From Shigella phage Moonfish, in sequence record PQ613263: a stretch of 64,000 nucleotides of DNA; one strand, written 5' to 3'. Position 1 is the stretch's first letter. Every line of letters begins with the position of its first letter. Below are positions 37,464 to 50,014 of this stretch, piece by piece. The notes beneath the pieces were generated by a model that was not told the origin of the DNA, did no database searches, and saw only the letters and a list, made by a program, of their open reading frames with translations. Position numbers and translations under genes: made by a program.

Positions 37464-40127
37464 TTAATTACCTTTCAGTTTATTTAGACGATTACGGTAG
37501 AGGGACTTAAACCCAGGAATATCATCTGGATGTTTCTTGAGATACCTGACTAAGCTAGTCAAGTCCAGGTTTTGCAGGATGTCATCCTTATTCCAGCTAT
37601 AACAAAATAAAGCTTTGTACTTGCTGAGTATTTCGTAATGTTTATGATTACGTGGGTTAGTCATTGTCATGTATGGCACTAAGTCTTCCTCTGACTTAAT
37701 GTAACCCATTTCAATGAGCTTCCTCTCTTTACTCCGATGATTTCTTAGGAAATCATACGCCCATTCATACTCTGGATTAAAAATCAGATTTTGTAGTGGT
37801 TTGAATGTTAGACCAAGAATACCGAGGATTTCCCAATACTCTCTGTCATCCAATCCTATGTACTCAGTAATACCAATACGCTGTTCAGTGACATACTTCT
37901 TGAATCCCTTACTGGAAATAACAGACATCAATTCACTGAGTCGAATATCGTCAATGTGAATAGCACCACGTCGTTTAGCCTTGTTAACTTCGATTTGATT
38001 GCGACAGACAACAGTTTCTGCTTTCATCTCATCGGACAACTCATACCATTTCCACATGGTTCCAATCCGGGCATTATCTGGTCTACCAGAACTAACCTGA
38101 TTGGCTAGTACGTAGTACTTAGGCTGTTCCACTTCAACGAAACCAGATTTCTCATGGTAGATTGGGTCAGCAAACTCCTTCTGGATATACGGTTTATATA
38201 TCCGATCTCCATTTTCATCTCGTACAAGAGTAGTACCTAGTACTGCATTCAATGAAATTAGAGCATTGGTTTTACCCCCTGCTTTGGTTTTATTGTCAGC
38301 TAGTGTCTTAGCTCGATTCTCGGCAGCTATCCTAGCTTGCTCCTTACGGAAGTTAGTTGGTTTGTCCCACTCATTGTATTGAGTAAGGTCAATTACCCGA
38401 TAACCCATAGCAGTGAATTTAGCTACAGCCTCCTCTGCTGCACCCTTCTTAGAACTAACGTTGTCCCACTCATTGTATTGAGTAAGGTCAATTACCCGAT
38501 AACCCATAGCAGTGAATTTAGCTACAGCCTCCTCTGCTGCACCCTTCTTAGAACTAACGACGTGAACAAAAGCTGTACGCTCCAGGTCACCTCGGTTGTA
38601 CTCAGGGAAGTATGAGAAAGAGTCTGCACAATCAGATAAACGGCGAGTAACTACAACGTTCTTGGTAGTGAATATACCAATACCTAGATGGGAGTGATAA
38701 TCCACCTTAAAGTAATCAGTAAGTTTACCTTTCACCAGTTTGGTACAGCTACCCTGGTTCATTATGTAACCTGACCACTTAATACCAGTAGCTTTTAAAG
38801 CAGCAATCTGAGGTAAGTGCAGATGGCGATATACGAATCCCTGGAATGGATAGCGTGTACCATTTGCACGAGTATGCTTAAGAGCACTTATAGCCTTACT
38901 ATACAGTTTTTTAAGACCTGCATATTCAGGACGAGCTAGTAATGCTTTATTGGATAAATTACGCCAGTGTTTGATGTGGTGCTTGCGTTGCTTAGCCCAT
39001 AAACTAGAGGACATATAGCGTTGAACAATAGGGTCTGTAACAGCAAGTAGGAAAGGTGGATACCTCCAGAAGCAGGAAGAAGCTTTAGAAGCATATTCTT
39101 CAATCTGCTTAATAGCTTCAGGAATCTTAGCCTTAATCTCTTTCTCCATACGGTCTACTAAATCTACACATAGAGCAGTAATACCATCGTCGGTTAACTT
39201 CTGGTTAGACAGGGTTTCTCGACTAGGAGCAATAGCTAAGGTATCCGGTGCAGCCTGAACTACTAAATTAGAAGCACCAATGATGTTCATAAAGTTGAGA
39301 ATAAGACCTACAGCTTCTTCACTAGCTGGGCTGGATACTATTGGGTACATTACATTACCGTAACGAATAAAGATGTTACTGCTACCCATATAGTTTTGAT
39401 ACCAGCTATCAGACATATCATATGAACCAGGTTTAAATGACATACCTAACGTAGGTAATAAAGTGTAGTCACCTTGTAGAATACTATTACCCGTTTCTTC
39501 ACGAGTGAGTTTGGGGGTACTAAGCTCAGCCTTAATTTCACCGTTAAACACAATAGATTTGATGTAGTGAATAAAGGTACTTACGTCGTGTTTACCTAGC
39601 TGGAATTTAACTTCCAGACCGGATTCCTCAGTAGGAATACCAGTAACGATAGGAACAATACCTGGTTTACCATCATTCTCTATTGCAGCTTTAGCTACGT
39701 TATATACCGACATCTTTCCTTGGTTCCACGAAGTAACCTGGAAGCTATCTGTATAAGCGAATGGGGACTTACATCCCAGACCAAATCCACCAGTAACACT
39801 ACTGTTGGACTTCTTGGTAGATGCACCATAGACACCATAAATGGAACCAATGAGTTCATCTGGGATACCGTTACCAAAGTCACGGAAGGTAATAAAGTTG
39901 TCTGTATCAATAGTAATACGGATAGGAGTATCAGTCTTACCTGCTTCAATATGAGCATCCCAACTGTTACAGATAGTCTCACGGACTACTGCCAGAGTAG
40001 GATTGTTATATAGGGAAGTACTTAATACGTGAAAGAATGCCGGGTCATCAGAGATGCCAAAGGCGATTGCTTCTTTACCACCCAGTGTCGCTGAAGTGGC
40101 TGATTGATTAGTATCTGCAACTAACAT
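37464..40127 (-). CDS. rIIA: rIIA-like protein with N-terminal GHKL (histidine-kinase-like) ATPase fold
   Basis: 887 aa; N-box ETICNSWDA, G1 box FRDFGNGIPDE, G2 box GGFGLG; contains an in-frame 33-aa tandem duplication. Confidence 0.7.
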   Translation of the reverse strand: MLVADTNQSATSATLGGKEAIAFGISDDPAFFHVLSTSLYNNPTLAVVRETICNSWDAHIEAGKTDTPIRITIDTDNFITFRDFGNGIPDELIGSIYGVYGASTKKSNSSVTGGFGLGCKSPFAYTDSFQVTSWNQGKMSVYNVAKAAIENDGKPGIVPIVTGIPTEESGLEVKFQLGKHDVSTFIHYIKSIVFNGEIKAELSTPKLTREETGNSILQGDYTLLPTLGMSFKPGSYDMSDSWYQNYMGSSNIFIRYGNVMYPIVSSPASEEAVGLILNFMNIIGASNLVVQAAPDTLAIAPSRETLSNQKLTDDGITALCVDLVDRMEKEIKAKIPEAIKQIEEYASKASSCFWRYPPFLLAVTDPIVQRYMSSSLWAKQRKHHIKHWRNLSNKALLARPEYAGLKKLYSKAISALKHTRANGTRYPFQGFVYRHLHLPQIAALKATGIKWSGYIMNQGSCTKLVKGKLTDYFKVDYHSHLGIGIFTTKNVVVTRRLSDCADSFSYFPEYNRGDLERTAFVHVVSSKKGAAEEAVAKFTAMGYRVIDLTQYNEWDNVSSKKGAAEEAVAKFTAMGYRVIDLTQYNEWDKPTNFRKEQARIAAENRAKTLADNKTKAGGKTNALISLNAVLGTTLVRDENGDRIYKPYIQKEFADPIYHEKSGFVEVEQPKYYVLANQVSSGRPDNARIGTMWKWYELSDEMKAETVVCRNQIEVNKAKRRGAIHIDDIRLSELMSVISSKGFKKYVTEQRIGITEYIGLDDREYWEILGILGLTFKPLQNLIFNPEYEWAYDFLRNHRSKERKLIEMGYIKSEEDLVPYMTMTNPRNHKHYEILSKYKALFCYSWNKDDILQNLDLTSLVRYLKKHPDDIPGFKSLYRNRLNKLKGN
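38362..38559. repeat. perfect 2 x 99-bp tandem duplication inside the rIIA-like gene
   Basis: 38362-38460 and 38461-38559 are identical base for base; encodes duplicated NVSSKKGAAEEAVAKFTAMGYRVIDLTQYNEWD. Confidence 0.9.
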
Positions 40128-40938: not shown

Positions 40939-41175
40939 TTACTTACTATTTCTCCCAAAGAAGCGTATTACACGTTCCTTTGCTTCATCCTGCTCCTTAA
41001 TGGCTACATAATCTCGTGCATAGTAATACACACACCATAAGCCAAGAACACATGCAGAAAAACGGGCTACTACGAAGAACATCTCTTCCAGGCTCTGTGC
41101 ACCATGTAGTGCAAATACAAATTCCAGAACCAGGATGATACTTATAATCATTGCTTGGATAGCTAAACGTTTCAT
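40939..41175 (-). CDS. small membrane protein
   Basis: 78 aa with two hydrophobic helices. Confidence 0.5.
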   Translation of the reverse strand: MKRLAIQAMIISIILVLEFVFALHGAQSLEEMFFVVARFSACVLGLWCVYYYARDYVAIKEQDEAKERVIRFFGRNSK

Positions 41176-42116
41176 TCTGTAATTGTTTCTCCTGGGATTA
41201 ACTTACGGAATTGGATGAAATCTAGCAGGTTGCCTGAATACAGATTACCTTCACGGTCCATAGAGGTAACACCCTGTTCCCAGGTTAATGGGTTCTGGTT
41301 GTTAATGAACTTATCACCGAATAGCATAGGAGTTGCTTGGTGTTCAGTAGGGGATGCATGAATAGGTTGGTCTTCGACTAACTTAGCAAACAATCCCAAG
41401 TCCTCTTCAATAGTAGAAGGGCGGCCTTCGAAATTGTTGTAAGAAGCACGAGCACAACGAGCAGCACTTACTTTAAGAAGTAAGCCATACACTTCTTCAC
41501 GACTTGGCTCATCACGAGTAATTCGTTGATGTTTGCAGTAATTATAAGCCCCGACACGATCAATATGAGCAATATACGGTAAATGCCATTCCCCTTGTGG
41601 GAGTGCTCTTGGAGTGCTTTCATTATGAGCCTTACGCATTGCTTGAGCCAGTTCACGAATCTCCGGTTGGGCATCTTCATGGTCACGCAGTCCATAGAAG
41701 TTAGTCCAGCTAGTTGAAGTTACCACTACACGAATATGTGTGAATGGTTCCAGAATACGGTTAACAATCTGCTTATGTACTTGCCCACGACGCAGCATTT
41801 CTGCATAGGTAGCAGCACTGGACGCAGCCTGGTTCCAGATAAAGATTGCATCACTACGTTGGTCTTCGGACAATTCTTCAAATGCCTGCATCCCTTTCTG
41901 GTTCTTACCCCAGTGACTTGGCATCACTGGTTCATTACGAACCTGTTCGATGAACTTAGAAGTAGGGATAGCACGACTACTTGAAGCGTTGCGGTTAAAC
42001 ACACGGTGGGTCATAAACTCACTGTGAATGAATCGGGGATAGACCAATTCAAAGGTAGTAATACGAGTACCCGTTGCATGATGAACGGAATCTGCAATGA
42101 CAGTTGCCTTAATCAT
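41172..42116 (-). CDS. thyX: flavin-dependent thymidylate synthase ThyX
   Basis: 314 aa; ThyX signature THRVFNRNASSSRAIP (RHR...S....S.R). Confidence 0.75.
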   Translation of the reverse strand: MIKATVIADSVHHATGTRITTFELVYPRFIHSEFMTHRVFNRNASSSRAIPTSKFIEQVRNEPVMPSHWGKNQKGMQAFEELSEDQRSDAIFIWNQAASSAATYAEMLRRGQVHKQIVNRILEPFTHIRVVVTSTSWTNFYGLRDHEDAQPEIRELAQAMRKAHNESTPRALPQGEWHLPYIAHIDRVGAYNYCKHQRITRDEPSREEVYGLLLKVSAARCARASYNNFEGRPSTIEEDLGLFAKLVEDQPIHASPTEHQATPMLFGDKFINNQNPLTWEQGVTSMDREGNLYSGNLLDFIQFRKLIPGETITE

Positions 42117-42559: not shown

Positions 42560-42586
42560 TAGTAAATCTTTCTTAGTAAATAAAAA

Positions 42587-42607
42587 AGCCCACGGGTTAG
42601 GTGGGCT
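42587..42607 (-). terminator. intrinsic terminator (minus strand)
   Basis: AGCCCAC...GTGGGCT hairpin with T-run on the minus strand. Confidence 0.5.
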
Positions 42608-42687
42608 TGGGTTAGGAGAAGGATAAGCAATGATCTGGAAGTAACTTCCACAAATAGCCCTACTAGAGGGCTATACAGGTAAGTTGC

Positions 42688-42894
42688 TTATTCAGCTTCT
42701 GCTTCAGGCTTAGCTCCAGACAGTGCTTTAGCTACATTACGACGAACAGAGTCGTAACCTACTTCAGTTCGTAGAAGAGAGCCGTCAACAAAAGCAATAT
42801 CTGCTTTTCCGTCATCGCTGCATTGTACTGTTACTACGTTTGCTGCAACTACTGTAAACTTACGACCATTTGCTTTGGTAGTGAATACTGACAT
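42688..42894 (-). CDS. hypothetical small protein
   Basis: 68-aa ORF. Confidence 0.45.
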   Translation of the reverse strand: MSVFTTKANGRKFTVVAANVVTVQCSDDGKADIAFVDGSLLRTEVGYDSVRRNVAKALSGAKPEAEAE

Positions 42895-42903
42895 GTTGTT
42901 TCC

Positions 42904-43410
42904 TTATTTACTGCTTCTCGCAGCTACTGGTTTGTTTTCCTGGTTATTGTACTTGCCTGTGTATGTGGCAGGTTCTTGAACCAGATGAAATAATACTTGA
43001 GCTATCCCGGAACCAGCCGGGATATGTAATTTCTTACGTCCGTGATAGACCAGTTCAAGGGTAAGATACCCTTTCCATCCTGGTTCAATCACGGTATTGA
43101 ACACTGATAATGCACGTCTTGCCCATGTAGACTTATCGTGAACGATTGCTACACAGGATGGGGACATGTTGAACTTCTCAATGGCTGAAGCCAATGCGAA
43201 CTTACCGAGATGGTGTGATACCTGTTTTCCATCAATGATTTTCACCATTGGAATCAACCCAAATAAGCGATAGAAGGTAATATCTTGTTTGATACGAATA
43301 TCATAACCAGCTTCACCCAACCCATAGCTTACACCATGCTCGGATACCTTACGGTCTGGGACATCCAGTAATTGAGAGGAACGATATAGGGAATTACCGT
43401 TAACAACCAT
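42904..43410 (-). CDS. dCTP deaminase / dUTPase-superfamily enzyme
   Basis: 168 aa; IEPGWKGYLTLELVYHG...IPAGSGIAQVLF matches the Dcd/dUTPase beta-jellyroll signature. Confidence 0.6.
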   Translation of the reverse strand: MVVNGNSLYRSSQLLDVPDRKVSEHGVSYGLGEAGYDIRIKQDITFYRLFGLIPMVKIIDGKQVSHHLGKFALASAIEKFNMSPSCVAIVHDKSTWARRALSVFNTVIEPGWKGYLTLELVYHGRKKLHIPAGSGIAQVLFHLVQEPATYTGKYNNQENKPVAARSSK

Positions 43411-44585
43411 TATTTCATTCCTTTAGGGATATGAACTACCTCCCCAAAAGGTACGGTAGCACTAGGATTATTCAGAACACACCATATGATAGGGATATCA
43501 AATGGTAATTCCTCCATTGGATGAACATACATATCGGAGAATATGATTGCAGCGGTTGGCTTATTCTTAATAATCCAATCCCGTACTGGCACAAGACTTG
43601 TACCACCACGGCCCGTAATCTTAATCTCTTCAAAAGTATCTTCTTCAGTGATGTCTATTTCTTCTTGGATAATATCGTCGAAGGTAATTAAGGACATCTT
43701 CTTAGGATTGAACTGGCTCTTAACGTAGGCAACCTCAGAGTTAAAACGCAGAGAGTCAGCACTACTAATAGAACCAGATACATCCTCAAAGTAAGCTAAG
43801 TGTCGTAAGCGTCCTTCATCATCTTCCAGGGATGGTAGATAGATGTCAGTGAAACGACGGTTAGGTCTGGCCCACGTATAACGTGAGTCATCAATGTCAG
43901 TGAAGAAATCCATCAAGACTTCCTGCCATGGAACTACTGGCTTAAGGAATTGGGTAATAACCTCTTCCATATGACCAGCACCCTTACCAGGCATTGTTCC
44001 ACCAGCCATCTTCTGGCTTTGCATCGCACGTACTACGTTGTTGACAACAGCACCCTGGGACTGCCCCGGAGTGGGAGCTTTCATGTCGCCAGCAAGACCT
44101 GCTCCAGCACCCCCTGACGGCTGCTGCCTTTTCTGAGGGTTCTTCATCAGGTCATCGTAGATGTCTTCTTCAACCCATCCTTTGTATTGAGGGTCTTTGC
44201 AAATACCTTCGTCGATACCAGTGAACTTGTAACCATCTTCCTCTAACTGAAGATTAATGAAGTGGTCACATGCCTGGTTCCAGACTTCTGGGTCACGGCT
44301 TCCACATCGGATGCCATGCAGATATGCCACATGCCAGAGTTCGTGCATTAATACGGTTTCTCTGGCATCTGGACACATCCAGACAAAGAAATCGGGATTG
44401 AAATGGAGTTCTATCCCATCAGTACATGCAGTGGGACAATCCTCACGTCTCCATGAGAATTTAAGGCTACACAGCAATGAACCAAAAAACGCTGCGCTGC
44501 GTCCAAGAAATGCGTTGGCTTGTATTCTATCGTACTCCCTCATTAACTGTTCATCAGTGAGGGTATGTGAAGGTATGTTATTCAT
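43410..44585 (-). CDS. VWA-domain protein with N-terminal HExxH metallopeptidase-like domain (MoxR partner)
   Basis: 391 aa; HELWH zinc-binding-like motif; MIDAS-like D-x-S-G-S (EDVSGSIS). Confidence 0.55.
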   Translation of the reverse strand: MNNIPSHTLTDEQLMREYDRIQANAFLGRSAAFFGSLLCSLKFSWRREDCPTACTDGIELHFNPDFFVWMCPDARETVLMHELWHVAYLHGIRCGSRDPEVWNQACDHFINLQLEEDGYKFTGIDEGICKDPQYKGWVEEDIYDDLMKNPQKRQQPSGGAGAGLAGDMKAPTPGQSQGAVVNNVVRAMQSQKMAGGTMPGKGAGHMEEVITQFLKPVVPWQEVLMDFFTDIDDSRYTWARPNRRFTDIYLPSLEDDEGRLRHLAYFEDVSGSISSADSLRFNSEVAYVKSQFNPKKMSLITFDDIIQEEIDITEEDTFEEIKITGRGGTSLVPVRDWIIKNKPTAAIIFSDMYVHPMEELPFDIPIIWCVLNNPSATVPFGEVVHIPKGMK

Positions 44586-44679
44586 TAAGATGCTCCATGA
44601 TTAGGGTGATAGCCATACAGTTTTTCAGCTGCTTTTCTAGCGTCTATGGCATCCTGCTTTTCAGCAAAAGTGCCTAAAC

Positions 44680-45033
44680 TTACCAGATGGAATCTCGTTT
44701 ATGCCAGTACACCCCAGTTACTCCACTGGAATTAGTTACACGTTTCTTTTGGTTTCTACTGTTAGTTTTGCTGTCCACCAACCTAAAGTTACTTAATAGA
44801 TTGTTAACCCTATTATGGTCTATGTGGTCAACCTGCATTCCCTTTGGTATAGGTCCATTGTGCATTTCCCATATGACACGATGCACTTTGTAGCTTTTGC
44901 ACTTATAGTTAAAACACAGATACCCATCACCATTTAAAGAGCCAACCCTGCCCCCAGCAATGGCCCTTGAGGACAATGTAACTTTCCAGAATAGCTCACC
45001 ATTTTCATAAACGAGTATGTCATTCCAGTTCAT
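44680..45033 (-). CDS. free-standing HNH endonuclease (HNH_3-like) with truncated AP2-like tail
   Basis: 117 aa; GYLCF...HRVIWEMHNGPIPKGMQVDHIDHNRVNNLLSNFRLV; C-terminal GVTGVYWHKR AP2-like start then stop. Confidence 0.7.
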   Translation of the reverse strand: MNWNDILVYENGELFWKVTLSSRAIAGGRVGSLNGDGYLCFNYKCKSYKVHRVIWEMHNGPIPKGMQVDHIDHNRVNNLLSNFRLVDSKTNSRNQKKRVTNSSGVTGVYWHKRDSIW

Positions 45034-45036
45034 AGA

Positions 45037-46089
45037 TTATCCGTGAATGTAACGAGAGATATTGGCAGCAGCCTTACGCCATTCAGGGGTAGCCTGAATT
45101 TCTGGTAATGCTCTACCTACTGTACGGAAGTACAGAATCTTATGAGTGAACGTTTTAAAGCGTTCAATGTACTGAAGAACATCAGCGAAGTTTTCTTCAG
45201 TAGTTTTGTTAGCCAGATGGTTAACGGTAGCCCAACACAGGTTGTTATCTTCCGGTAGTGCACAGCCCATAGGGTCTTTGACTACTTTCTCAATCGTAAT
45301 CATACGATTGTATACCTGAGTGAACTGAACAAATTCTGTAGCCTTACCAGCAGTAACGTGGCCTGCATAATAGATAGAATCTTCATCAGGCAGAGCACCT
45401 TCTGGTCGGTTCTTGAGGTCTTTATTAACAAAGTCCCAGGTACGAGGGCAACAGAATGTTTTGTTCTTGTGGGCAGGATCGAAGTCATGCAGATAACCAG
45501 GGTTAGCATGTAAGAATGCAACCAGACGCTCGTCCCATTCCTGTGGAATCATTACGTCTTCAACAAAGATGTCGAAGTTAAGTTCCATTTCGAAGTGGAC
45601 AACTCGAGACTGCATTGCAGTACCTAGTGGGTTAACAATGGCACGGTCAGTAGCTTTGTTACCAGCACAGACAATCATCACATTAGGGTGAAGTTTTTTC
45701 TGACCAGTCATGCGGTCAAGAATTAGTTTGTATGCAGCAGCTACTACTTCTTTCTTAGCTGAGTTGAACTCATCAAGGAACAGGAGCCATCCATTGTAAC
45801 CTTCAGGGATTTCATCCCCTTCAATTGGGAACAAGTCAGCGAATGGAATAAACTCTGCACGGTCACCATTACGGAATGGTAGACCTGATAGGTCTTCTGG
45901 GGCAGAAGTAGACAGACGATGGTCAATCAGCTTCATACCAAATTCATCTGCAACAGAACGAATAATTGCAGATTTACCCATGCCTGGTGATGAAGTCAGG
46001 AACGGTACGTTACCTGCTTGTAAGGCACGGATAATAAAGTTACGGGCTTGACGTGTGTTACATACAGTCAAGGAGTCAATGCTTGCCAT
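45037..46089 (-). CDS. MoxR-like AAA+ ATPase
   Basis: 350 aa; Walker A SPGMGKS, Walker B LLFLDEFN. Confidence 0.7.
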   Translation of the reverse strand: MASIDSLTVCNTRQARNFIIRALQAGNVPFLTSSPGMGKSAIIRSVADEFGMKLIDHRLSTSAPEDLSGLPFRNGDRAEFIPFADLFPIEGDEIPEGYNGWLLFLDEFNSAKKEVVAAAYKLILDRMTGQKKLHPNVMIVCAGNKATDRAIVNPLGTAMQSRVVHFEMELNFDIFVEDVMIPQEWDERLVAFLHANPGYLHDFDPAHKNKTFCCPRTWDFVNKDLKNRPEGALPDEDSIYYAGHVTAGKATEFVQFTQVYNRMITIEKVVKDPMGCALPEDNNLCWATVNHLANKTTEENFADVLQYIERFKTFTHKILYFRTVGRALPEIQATPEWRKAAANISRYIHG

Positions 46090-46123
46090 TTACTTACTCT
46101 CCTAAAGGTAATGGAATTACTAA

Positions 46124-46453
46124 TTAAGATTTAACACAAGGGTATGCTTTATTAACGGCGTAGCTCATGATTGCGAATGAGGACTGCATCGATAATACTT
46201 CAGGGTCATACACAATTACTCGCGCTACACGATCGGTGATGCTTCCGTACTTCATTCCTTCCGGGATACAGTTTTCAGTACTATCCCCATACAATTGAAC
46301 CATGCCAGAGAAGTAACCTTGTAGGAAATGCCTACCAGCGTCATTGTGGTAAGCTTGTGCAGCCTTAATAAGGTTATCTGCTGAGCCAGATGCCTTAGCA
46401 GAAAAGGACAGAGCTGACAAAGCTACTACAGCAACAGCAATTAAAGTTTTCAT
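46124..46453 (-). CDS. secreted/periplasmic protein with signal peptide
   Basis: 109 aa; N-terminal MKTLIAVAVVALSALSFSAKASG. Confidence 0.5.
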   Translation of the reverse strand: MKTLIAVAVVALSALSFSAKASGSADNLIKAAQAYHNDAGRHFLQGYFSGMVQLYGDSTENCIPEGMKYGSITDRVARVIVYDPEVLSMQSSFAIMSYAVNKAYPCVKS

Positions 46454-46639
46454 TTAGTTACCTTTTAACTCGTTGAGTTGAAGTACTCCGGTAGGGGTTA
46501 ATGACCACCCAAGACCAGCATTGAACTGTACTAAGCCCAGTTTCTTAAGAGACTGTGCGGTTTTGTTATTACGGTTGCTGGTGGCAGAACCACCTTGAAC
46601 CATGCGAAGGAATATTACTTGGGACTGGGTAAGTTTCAT
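46454..46639 (-). CDS. hypothetical small protein
   Basis: 61-aa ORF with start/stop overlap to neighbours. Confidence 0.4.
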   Translation of the reverse strand: MKLTQSQVIFLRMVQGGSATSNRNNKTAQSLKKLGLVQFNAGLGWSLTPTGVLQLNELKGN

Positions 46640-46824
46640 TTCTTCTCCGGTACGAACTGTATTACACAGCTTTGGTTACGAGGGATATTCAATTCACATT
46701 CATGCTTGAGGGTTTGTGTTACAGAAATTGGAATAGAACCAAAGTAGGTATTAGAAATAGCTACAATTCCTGCACCAATTAACCCTCCTAACATGAACGA
46801 GAATAATGAAAGCTCTTTATACAT
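46636..46824 (-). CDS. small membrane protein
   Basis: 62 aa; hydrophobic helix FSFMLGGLIGAGIVAISNTYF. Confidence 0.45.
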   Translation of the reverse strand: MYKELSLFSFMLGGLIGAGIVAISNTYFGSIPISVTQTLKHECELNIPRNQSCVIQFVPEKK

Positions 46825-46856
46825 TTCCTGGCTCCAGTTTGTTTAAGTCAAAAAAA

Positions 46857-46879
46857 GACCTCCCTTCAATAGGGAGGCC
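46857..46879 (-). terminator. intrinsic terminator (minus strand)
   Basis: CCTCCC...GGGAGG hairpin with T7 run on the minus strand. Confidence 0.5.
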
Positions 46880-46929: not shown

Positions 46930-47511
46930 TTACTCTTCAACAGTATCAGCGTAGTAGCCTACAGCCAGCAATGAGGTATCTTCTACCGTGGTTCCATTAG
47001 CATCAGTAACAATCACTTTATAAGTACCAGCAGAAGCAGCTGTTACGTTACTAAGGGTCAATGTTGCAGTAGCAGCAGATGCGTTATCGCCAGAATCAAT
47101 ATCAGCGAATACTGCACCATCAGTGTCTGCTTTGAATTGCCACTTATAAGTAAATGGTGCTTTACCACCTGCTACATCAATATGCCAGTTAATATCTTCA
47201 CCTTCGATGGCAGAGATTACACGAGGCAGTTTGGTAGCAATAGTCAGTCGTGGAGTAGCTTTCATATCAATAGAGATAGACTGCATATCCACGATGTTGT
47301 CAGGCCAGAAGCCTTCTTCAGCAGGGTTTTTAGCAGATCGTTTATACAACAGGTCACGTACACCGTGATAAATAACCAAGCTATCAGGGTAAGTGGCATC
47401 TGGATGTTCAAAAGTACCTACTTCCACGGAACCACCTGGAACACTGCCACCTGAATCAAGCACGGTAGCAACGTTGGTAGTTTTATTAAACGCAATCTTT
47501 AGGGTTGGCAT
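46930..47511 (-). CDS. Ig-like domain protein, capsid decoration protein candidate (N4 gp17-like position)
   Basis: 193 aa; C-terminal Ig-like signature (FTYKWQFK...GTYKVIVTDANG); gene sits right after the RNAP II genes. Confidence 0.5.
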   Translation of the reverse strand: MPTLKIAFNKTTNVATVLDSGGSVPGGSVEVGTFEHPDATYPDSLVIYHGVRDLLYKRSAKNPAEEGFWPDNIVDMQSISIDMKATPRLTIATKLPRVISAIEGEDINWHIDVAGGKAPFTYKWQFKADTDGAVFADIDSGDNASAATATLTLSNVTAASAGTYKVIVTDANGTTVEDTSLLAVGYYADTVEE

Positions 47512-47828: not shown

Positions 47829-47861
47829 TTAACTTAATGCATAATCCGTTTCAAGAATGTC
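47829..47861 (-). CDS. RNAP II large subunit, 3' mini-exon encoding the C-terminal foot (D)ILETDYALS
   Basis: Closely resembles the T7 RNAP C-terminus RDILESDFAFA; exact 3' junction inferred. Confidence 0.55.
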   Translation of the reverse strand, partial: DILETDYALS

Positions 47862-48988
47862 CTGCCAGAGGCTGTCATCCAGCTTACCCGCAGAGAACTC
47901 TTGTCCCAGTACCTGAGATAGGATGAAGCCCAGCAAGTCACTCTTAGCAATGTCAGATAGAATCTGATTGTACTGACGACGTAGGTCATTACCATAGTTA
48001 GGATGACAACGAAAACCATTAGTTAAACGAGTCGTTAGCTCGCCCTTACCTTCCATGATTAACATGAAAGCCATATGTAGCATCTGCTTGTTTACGAGCA
48101 AGCATTGCCTCCTCAAGTGTGTCGTACGTACCCAGACCGATCTGTTTGCGATTGACTGTGATGTGTGCCTGAAATCTACCAGAAGGCAGTATTCTCACAC
48201 CGTTCACTTTGCTTGAAGTATTACTAGATAAACTCATATTCATCTGGTTCTGTCTGCTGGTTACATTTCTCAAATTAGACCAACGATTGTCGTTTCTAGT
48301 ATGATTGATGTGGTCCACCTGGTTAGGTGTTTCCCCAGTTTCCATTATCCAGATTATTCGATGTAGTAAGTACTCTTTGCGGCCCAGGCTAACGGATAGA
48401 TACCCTTCTTTGTGAGGATACCCCACAATTGTTCCGGCTAACCCACTGGCAGAGTCATAACGATGAGTCACTAGCCCACTATCCCTGTCATACCTTAAAA
48501 CCTTCTGCAAAGATTCTTGGGTAATATTACCCAAGTTTATTATTAGGTTTTTACAGGTAGAGCATAGATGACCTATTGGACTCTTTCTAGCATCATAGAA
48601 GTTACAAACAAACTCATTAGAGCATTGCTTGCAACTACAGATAGCTGTGTACTTACCAGTTTTACGTAATATTTGAGAGTTATCTAACATATGGATTCCT
48701 TAGTAATTTTGCATACAATTTCAGATTGTATCCTAACCAAGGAAGTAAGTCTCCAATTTTCACTGGAGTATCGGACTATATCATCACCCACTAATCAGTG
48801 GGGCAAGGCGCTTGGGTGGTCACTTGACTCACCTACTCTACTCACATACGAAATGCTTTCGATAGTCTCTGAACCTTCCCTCATAGAGGGCTTGGCTGCT
48901 GATTGGCATATCCATAGGACTTAGCTTTCCAGCAATTCACCTTGTTTTCGACACGGATTACTCCGTGAAGGATCATTTATGTTTAATC
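47862..48988 (-). mobile_element. probable group I intron (~1.1 kb) in RNAP II large-subunit gene, carrying an HNH-AP2 endonuclease ORF
   Basis: Upstream ORF stops right after ...VLTVHD, 9-10 codons short of a T7-like C-terminus that is encoded 1.1 kb downstream in frame-compatible position; splice after caU with intron ending caG satisfies U/G group I rules. Confidence 0.55.
48046..48690 (-). CDS. HNH endonuclease with AP2 DNA-binding domain (intron-encoded)
   Basis: 214 aa; own AAGGAA RBS; HNH_3-like GYLSVSL...HRIIWIMETGETPNQVDHINHTRNDNRWSNLR; C-terminal AP2-like GVRILPSGRFQAHI...GTYDTLEEA. Confidence 0.8.
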   Translation of the reverse strand: MLDNSQILRKTGKYTAICSCKQCSNEFVCNFYDARKSPIGHLCSTCKNLIINLGNITQESLQKVLRYDRDSGLVTHRYDSASGLAGTIVGYPHKEGYLSVSLGRKEYLLHRIIWIMETGETPNQVDHINHTRNDNRWSNLRNVTSRQNQMNMSLSSNTSSKVNGVRILPSGRFQAHITVNRKQIGLGTYDTLEEAMLARKQADATYGFHVNHGR

Positions 48989-50014
48989 ATGTACAGTCAA
49001 TACAGGGAATGGCTTCTTAGGTAAAGTGTCCAGCATGTCTGCTACTACCTGACGGTCAACCATAGCAATAGTGCCTGGGTCGAGATAGTCGATAATAGAC
49101 ATAGATAAGAATCCAGACTTCTCGTAGTGTTCCCACAAGGTCTGTACCATTTCCATGTTACCTTCAATCTCCCCATACTCTGCTGGGCCTGTGTCGCAGA
49201 GTTCACGAACAGCAGCAACCAGGTTAGCATCGAAGTTACAACGACGCAGCATCTCGCGTACCACCATCCCATCAATAGAGTGGGTGATGTTAGCAGAGAG
49301 CATACGAGTCTTCTCTTCAGTACCCTGAACCATGCGGGTAATGTCGAATGGTTTACCTAAGAAGTTAACAGTCTGTACTTCTGGAACCATGACCTTAATG
49401 ACGGCATGGAAGTTGTCAGACAATACCCATACGTAACGGTTAGCATCCGGGTTACCACATTGCAGTAAGAACTTGTTCAATGCCCAAGGCCCACTAGCAA
49501 CAGTTTCCATTACATTCTCAAAAGTCTTGAGACGGATACCCTCACCGAATACTTCTTTAGGCTTAGCTTCTGAACCGTAGAATGCAGTCATAACTGCCTG
49601 CTTAGTGTCACTACGCTTAATACGAGATGCTTCACCAAGGATGTCCAACATCTTGTGATAGATAACTGTATAAGCATCACGACGTAATGGCTTACCGTTT
49701 TCACCCATGTAGTTAACTACGTTACACAGTTCAGCAGCAGAACGGTCACCAGTCAGGCAAGCCAGTAACTGCAAGCCTGATGATGTAGCATCCAGAGCTA
49801 CGGCATAGCCAATAGGCTTACCGGCTTTCATATCTTTCCATGCGTTTACACCTGCATAGAACAATGCGGATTCTTCAGCTTCATCTACCAGATTAAGCAG
49901 GTTAGCTTCGTTTTCATCGAACCAGCTAATACGTTCATCCCATGTTTTCTTATCCAGACCCATGTTATTCGCAATATCAATCTTTAAATATTCTTTCGCT
50001 GTGAAAAGCTGCAT
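48989..50014 (-). CDS. phage RNAP II large subunit (N4 gp16-like, T7-like catalytic half), 5' exon
   Basis: LDATSSGLQLLA (T7 motif A FDGSCSGIQHFSA), KQAVMTAFYGS (motif B), ITHSIDG (T7 H784 region), RELCDTG (motif C). Confidence 0.8.

Follow-up and report, generated by a model that had tools for sequence, protein, structure and literature searches.

A MoxR-class ATPase and its zincin-like/VWA partner in Shigella phage Moonfish: orthologues of N4 gp24 and gp25 with a predicted remodelling-and-cleavage role

The Shigella phage Moonfish (sequence record PQ613263) was analysed over a window of 64,000 nucleotides, and our subject here is a pair of minus-strand genes within it: one at 45037-46089 encoding a 350-aa MoxR-class AAA+ ATPase, the other at 43410-44585 encoding a 391-aa protein with zincin-like and VWA domains. 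The two are separated by a truncated, free-standing gene for an HNH_3 homing endonuclease (44680-45033, minus strand, 117 aa). The window belongs to a G7C-like N4-type podophage (Schitoviridae, Enquatrovirinae, Gamaleyavirus), and across 3.5 kb around the pair nucleotide identity to PD38, Bp4, G7C, Mimir124, PhAPEC7 and others is 91-93%. From sequence comparison we show that the two genes are orthologues of coliphage N4 gp24 and gp25. RefSeq notes in Bp4, G7C and PhAPEC7 name the relatives of the first as homologues of N4 gp24, and those of the second as 'VWA-like domain-containing protein; similar to gp25 from N4'; the products match phrog_1297 (ATPase) with 449 bits and phrog_1314 with 475 bits, respectively. 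The order gp17 … gp24, gp25, gp26 (dCTP deaminase), … gp30 (ThyX) is the same in N4, G7C, Bp4, PhAPEC7 and the window.

The motifs of an AAA+ ATPase are readily seen in gp24. Walker A (G38-K39-S40) lies at 45970-45987 and Walker B (D106, E107) at 45769-45774, both on the minus strand; together with N144 (sensor-1), R162 and R216 these residues are invariant in 40 phage homologues. Among 42 distant homologues G38, Walker B, N144, R162 and R216 are retained in every case, and K39/S40 in 97-98%. For R162 and R216 we infer the roles of arginine finger and sensor 2. Placing gp24 within the AAA+ superfamily requires the family as a whole, given that PF00004, the generic AAA model, is the only one that the window protein passes when taken alone (27 bits). 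When 35 phage and bacterial members were examined (matches counted at E<0.01), 31 matched AAA_5, 17 matched AAA_3 and 10 matched bpMoxR; bacterial homologues exceed the AAA_5 cut-off with 30 and 27.4 bits, and two homologues are named 'MoxR-like ATPase' by the Joint Genome Institute. A profile of these 35 members, compared against the PDB, recovered midasin AAA modules (3e-23), NorQ (1.4e-5) and CbbQ (1.6e-4), and more weakly RavA (0.017) and the MoxR protein CHU_0153 (0.028). On this family-level evidence we accept gp24 as a member of the MoxR-class/AAA_5 clade (dynein-midasin-MoxR); by sequence it appears closest to midasin and the CbbQ/NorQ group. A further helical region of ~130 aa at its C-terminus is specific to the family.

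The partner, gp25, comprises two domains. Residues 17-253 (43827-44537, minus strand) form the zincin-like domain, PF13203 (DUF2201_N), within which an HELWH motif occupies residues 81-85 (44331-44345, minus strand). Residues 263-386 (43428-43799, minus strand) form the VWA domain, Pfam DUF2201; it has the VWA (Rossmann-like) fold and carries the MIDAS D-x-S-x-S sequence (D268, S270, S272; 43770-43784, minus strand); T329 and D351 supply the rest of the motif. In the 40 phage-type homologues H81, E82, H85, D107 and all five MIDAS residues are invariant, and in 71 distant homologues drawn from bacterial genomes and metagenome-assembled genomes (MAGs) the five MIDAS residues, H81, H85 and D107 stand at 100%, with H90 at 97% and E82 at 92%. 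H90 and D107 are candidate third zinc ligands. Pfam family and motif suggest a peptidase at the N-terminus. The single gp25 sequence found no match among PDB sequences. Taking both proteins together, 14 of the 18 motif residues tested in distant homologues (42-71 per protein) are fully conserved, and gp24 and gp25 both look catalytically competent.

An initial annotation, made from the letters of the window alone, had described a Walker A/B ATPase and a VWA protein with an N-terminal HELWH metallopeptidase-like domain. Both reading frames were found at exactly the positions it gave, the ATPase with motifs that do not vary among 40 homologues and the VWA protein with a full MIDAS; its assignment of the latter to DUF2201/VWA is borne out by two Pfam models far beyond chance (DUF2201_N 188 bits, cut-off 23.2; the VWA-like DUF2201 116 bits). 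Its AAA_5/MoxR assignment holds for the family and fails for the window sequence (AAA_5 15.5 versus 22 bits), which is why the MoxR-class label given here rests on family and structural evidence. NCBIfam returned no match for gp24 or gp25 and hence provides no curated name.

Three further matches involving gp25 deserve comment. Phrog_1314, the family of gp25, is labelled 'HNH endonuclease' in PHROGs, though gp25 has no HNH domain, and this name has been copied to gp25 homologues in many RefSeq and GenBank records (among them HK2, ShWW44, phiEaP8 and C121). The label looks like a propagated mis-annotation, with neighbouring or fused HNH insertions perhaps its source. A match between the gp25 N-terminal profile and the MS2 coat protein (E 2.9e-4) was rejected as spurious: it involves a low-confidence linker (model predicted local distance difference test score 46-64). 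An Rfam mir-44 match within gp25 is attributable to chance (22 bits versus a gathering score of 54).

The gene pair and its domain architecture are already known and have, in substance, been published. A core-genome study of 2014 placed both genes, with function unexplained, among the 14 that all N4-like phages share (PMC4193335); in N4 they belong to the middle transcripts (PMC4193335; PMC2784036). For an N4-like phage of Sinorhizobium the metallopeptidase domain of Pfam has been pointed out (PMC6992544), and Iyer et al. (2021) described, in group 2.2 jumbo phages, a MoxR-vWA pair whose vWA protein carries a metallopeptidase at its N-terminus (PMC7824862). The view of the initial annotation, that this is a chaperone-like pair of unknown role in phages, agrees with that literature (PMC4193335; PMC7824862). 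What seems not to feature in the papers we found is the occurrence of the ordered pair on conjugative plasmids, next to a type IV secretion system (T4SS), and in bacterial mobile-element islands.

Homologues of gp25 are present in 690 phage records. Schitoviridae account for most of these, and the others take in Asteriusvirus jumbo phages, Bacillus phage G and rV5-like phages; proteins of Bacillus phage PBS1 and cyanophage S-TIM5 were further matches, from Foldseek. In the window and its relatives gp24 and gp25 are adjacent or have one inserted gene between them; their homologues are adjacent in jumbo phage phAPEC6 and within ~4 kb of each other in phage G and an rV5-like phage. The phAPEC6 proteins, gp265c ('MoxR ATPase', E 1.8e-62) and gp264c ('N4 gp25-like protein', E 8.3e-40), are homologues of the window pair. 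Group 2.2 jumbo phages indeed share the three-domain architecture of the window pair, from which the jumbo-phage proteins differ by insertions and by an identity of only ~24%.

The pair is not, as a refinement of the initial annotation, phage-specific. A bacterial scan that took one genome per species yielded 80 loci from bacterial genomes and MAGs, in 67 of which a gp24-like open reading frame (ORF) stands upstream of a gp25-like ORF on the same strand; most of the remaining 13 are cut by a contig end. Automated gap classes over-counted loci with other inserts, the gp25 profile having matched in two pieces, and six loci so classed (L051, L053, L054, L062, L074 and L077) are in fact adjacent. 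In ~36 bacterial loci, mostly of Acidobacteria (within L019-L083; for example L030, 3997-4935, and L024, 2532-3434), a third gene of ~310 aa stands between the gp24-like and gp25-like genes, or just before them, giving a three-gene cassette. Its product has a sub-threshold DUF3150 match only (E 0.0045), no PHROG match, and no homologue anywhere in the window at E≤10. Neighbours in the bacterial islands include RNase H (16 loci), Sipho_Gp157-like genes (25 loci), a DUF4942 methyltransferase, PRTRC_E, RES and an AbiEii-like AAA_21 gene, and no virion protein is found among the conserved neighbour families scanned. At diverged phage-like loci a DNA polymerase A, SF1 helicase or dCTP deaminase gene lies immediately downstream.

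Plasmids show the same arrangement. A homologue is carried by 78 plasmids, 29 of them conjugative and 20 mobilizable; one match, pRBH2-3, is the genome of an N4-like phage that was submitted as a plasmid. In pBcp895-1, a conjugative plasmid of Burkholderia, the genes for the ATPase (E 9e-82) and the VWA protein (E 9e-60) are directly upstream of VirB/T4SS and TraI/TraD genes, with only an IS21 element between. None of the phage, plasmid and island contexts surveyed is a virion module. That the two genes stay so closely linked in such remote relatives speaks for a functional link between them.

In the window itself the pair falls within a probable transcription unit spanning 42586-46879 on the minus strand and delimited on either side by hairpins that resemble terminators (46857-46879 and 42586-42608); stem-loops or terminators are annotated at matching places in the G7C and PhAPEC7 records. 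The order of genes in the unit is two small ORFs, a Rap1a/Tai4-like ORF, gp24, the HNH gene, gp25, the dCTP deaminase gene (gp26; Pfam; 42904-43410, minus strand), whose start overlaps the gp25 stop at 43410, and a 68-aa ORF. The flanking hairpins suggest that these genes are co-transcribed. A sigma-70 promoter scan of the window was uninformative, giving fewer sites than shuffled sequence. The middle genes of N4 are transcribed by the phage RNA polymerase II (RNAPII).

What, then, might the pair do? Domain content, considered alongside characterised MoxR-VWA systems (midasin, NorQD, CbbQO, RavA-ViaA and ATV p618/p892, ATV being the Acidianus two-tailed virus), leads us to propose, at a probability of roughly 0.6, that gp24 and gp25 constitute a two-protein ATP-dependent remodelling-and-cleavage device. 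By this proposal gp24 would form a MoxR-class AAA+ ring driven by ATP and gp25 would be its dedicated partner, with the metal site of the VWA MIDAS gripping an acidic residue of the client, docking on gp24, or both. ATP hydrolysis by gp24 would remodel or extract the target protein, which the zincin-like HExxH domain of gp25 could then cleave; both proteins would be made in the middle phase, along with nucleotide-metabolism and replication genes. The interaction of gp24 with gp25, the hexamer and the proteolysis are predicted steps.

The known systems (characterised MoxR-vWA systems are listed in PMC7159879) resemble the window pair to differing degrees. Midasin (Rea1/Mdn1), a eukaryotic protein, strings six AAA modules along a single giant polypeptide and lacks a peptidase, whereas in the window there are two small proteins and any ring must form from identical subunits. 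Structural and profile likeness is seen with NorQ/NorD and CbbQ/CbbO of the CGN subfamily which, like the window, pair a single-module MoxR ATPase with a separate VWA/MIDAS adaptor encoded alongside; the NorD and CbbO adaptors lack a zincin domain and, unlike gp25, act on defined metabolic enzymes, and NorQ and CbbQ are without the ~130-aa helical C-terminal region of gp24. The ATV proteins p618 (MoxR) and p892 (VWA) are a viral pair for which interaction and stimulation of the ATPase by p892 have been demonstrated (PMC4124505). They differ in coming from an archaeal virus, in being virion-associated, in having no zincin domain and in the distance of the similarity (Foldseek E 7e-5).

Several observations weigh against the device as proposed. 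Some 8% of distant gp25 homologues are without the catalytic glutamate, and the profile of the gp25 N-terminal domain gave only marginal PDB matches, around the HExxH helix, to M48 (E 0.039) and MJ1213 (0.084). The window gp24 alone falls below the cut-offs not only of AAA_5 but also of bpMoxR (13.5 versus 27 bits) and AAA_3. Literature searches gave no experiment on the function or essentiality of N4 gp24 or gp25, and no experimental report of peptidase activity for a DUF2201_N-type domain. Finally, the capsid decoration gene gp17 is also situated in the N4 middle region, so that association with replication genes is weak evidence.

A critical question is the nature of the client. Middle-phase timing, and the presence of the same ordered pair on conjugative plasmids and in islands, make it more likely that the target is a protein handled while incoming mobile DNA is being established or replicated than that it is a part of the virion. 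That gp24 and gp25 have core status across hosts as far apart as Roseobacter and E. coli speaks for a conserved client, phage-encoded or universal in hosts, and not to a fast-evolving defence protein. A broader and distinctly tentative extension – one we think has a rather small chance of being right – is that gp24-gp25 is a general machine for the establishment of mobile DNA, common to N4-like and some jumbo phages, conjugative plasmids and islands: a midasin-like AAA+/MIDAS device, divided between two proteins and equipped with a zincin of its own, that would remove and cut a protein on incoming or replicating DNA, as opposed to a virion chaperone. Candidate clients would be a relaxase, a DNA-binding protein conserved among hosts, or a pilot or injected protein, of which the virion RNA polymerase of N4 is an example; bacterial versions of the machine may often work with a third, DUF3150-like protein.

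The alternative that survives best is that the pair is a chaperone and maturation protease for virion assembly, the MoxR-vWA part folding or assembling structural proteins and the zincin processing them. Just such a role – virion assembly with peptidolytic processing, by reference to ATV p618/p892 – was proposed outright for the group 2.2 jumbo phages that share this architecture (PMC7824862), and p618 (MoxR) and p892 (VWA) have been linked to tail development (PMC4124505), ORF892 of ATV being a weak Foldseek match (E 7e-5). The pair is, moreover, core together with structural genes in N4-like phages, and ~1 kb upstream of it, still within the same region, is gp17, the gene for capsid decoration. 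Yet gp24 and gp25 sit in the middle block, with replication and nucleotide metabolism, and not in the late structural block; homologous ordered pairs adjoin T4SS genes on conjugative plasmids; and the bacterial islands offer no virion protein among the neighbour families scanned. The spread to plasmids and islands and the replication-module context therefore disfavour a role limited to virion assembly, and we regard this explanation as unlikely.

Still less probable is a role in anti-defence or host takeover, according to which the pair would extract and degrade a host protein – of defence, or of the nucleoid – so that the element can establish itself. Residence on conjugative and mobilizable plasmids, and in islands with RES, AbiEii-like AAA_21 and methyltransferase genes, fits such a role, as does the Tai4/Rap1a-like immunity gene that shares the inferred operon in the window; anti-defence genes, however, are usually accessory and fast-evolving, so that strict core status over very different hosts, combined with strong conservation, would be atypical, while PADLOC gave no defence-system match for gp24 or gp25 and expression is middle and not early. 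That the pair is a chaperone for metal-cofactor insertion of the NorQ/NorD, CobS/CobT or BchI/BchD type, with HExxH a metal-handling site and not a protease, is very improbable indeed: NorQ and CbbQ are the closest solved MoxR relatives, the gp25 VWA resembles those of NorD and BchD and Foldseek gives a weak match to a phage 'cobalamin biosynthesis protein', but no conserved metalloenzyme partner is linked to the pair across phages, plasmids and islands, HExxH with a conserved glutamate is typical of a hydrolytic zincin, and neither of the neighbours ThyX and dCTP deaminase is a metal-cluster enzyme.

The gene that separates gp24 from gp25 has a history of its own. Its 117-aa product is an HNH_3 endonuclease (67 bits), a match also to phrog_99 and to PADLOC HEase models. 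The gene occurs between gp24 and gp25 in the window, Bp4, PD38, Uz-1 and G7C (the last with a different allele), and is absent from PhAPEC7, where gp24 and gp25 are 7 bases apart (annotated 4586 and 4594), and from many other records that cover only ~80% of the query. Its presence or absence at a fixed site in close relatives marks it as a true insertion, just as the initial annotation had taken it to be; to be added is that the gene is truncated. G7C gp24.1 is a diverged, intact allele of 158 aa. The window allele, common to Bp4, PD38 and Uz-1 only, has 80% nucleotide identity as against 91% in the flanks. Aligned with Bp4 and G7C, the window copy proves to have lost 31 bp between two TCTGGTA repeats (the repeat at the junction is at 44681-44687), a deletion of its own that causes a frameshift and a stop at 44680-44682; the full-length HNH protein with its C-terminal AP2-like DNA-binding domain is not retained. 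An out-of-frame remnant of that domain (…LVSLGTFAEKQDAIDARKAAEKLYGYHPNHGAS*) persists at 44586-44679 on the minus strand: in frame-0 translation it aligns with the C-termini of Bp4 orf67 and G7C gp24.1, and its old stop shares bases with the gp25 start (TAATG). In Bp4 the damage is at the opposite end from that in the window copy. The HNH gene is a selfish homing endonuclease in decay and has no part in the function of the ATPase and VWA proteins.

The gp24-gp25 region attracts HNH genes repeatedly. In U1G (NC_070872.1) two ATPase pieces and three HNH genes are annotated under the gp24-gp25 match, and in Acinetobacter pRBH2-3 (L088, NZ_CP110465.1) an HNH gene and four small ORFs stand between the ATPase and VWA genes.

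Other features of the surrounding DNA are reported for completeness. Just upstream of gp24, and in the same inferred operon, a 109-aa ORF (46124-46453, minus strand) with a signal-peptide-like N-terminus matches Rap1a, a family of immunity proteins against type VI secretion system amidases, with 29.6 bits; the annotation of some relatives has it as 'Tai4'. The gp17 homologue, a Hoc-like capsid decoration gene (Pfam/PHROGs) at 46930-47511 on the minus strand, encodes 193 aa as against 273-277 aa in G7C, Bp4 and PhAPEC7, and one Ig-like domain was detected in its product. ThyX (gp30), recognized by Pfam/PHROGs, is at 41172-42116. An rIIA-like gene (37464-40127, minus strand; Pfam/PHROGs) contains a perfect 99-bp tandem duplication at 38362-38559 (2.0 copies, 100% match) that encodes an in-frame 33-aa repeat (…SSKKGAAEEAVAKFTAMGYRVIDLTQYNEWD ×2); this could be a recent event or an assembly artefact.

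A second homing endonuclease resides in the homologue of N4 gp16/RNAP2, the gene for the large subunit of RNAPII (47829-50014, minus strand), which is broken by an insertion of ~970 bp directly after codons …TVHD. The insertion is an intron, at ~48015-48986, with a complete group I core at 48751-48994 (Rfam RF00028, 91 bits, E 7e-23), and it carries an intact 214-aa ORF for a homing endonuclease of the HNH_3+AP2 type at 48046-48690. In alignment with G7C gp16, nt 1-1028 correspond to 50014-48987 and nt 1033-1218 to 48014-47829.

For gp24 and gp25 the substrate is of central interest: once found, it would close a gap in our picture of a phage family with therapeutic uses, and it might reveal a common step in the establishment of mobile DNA.

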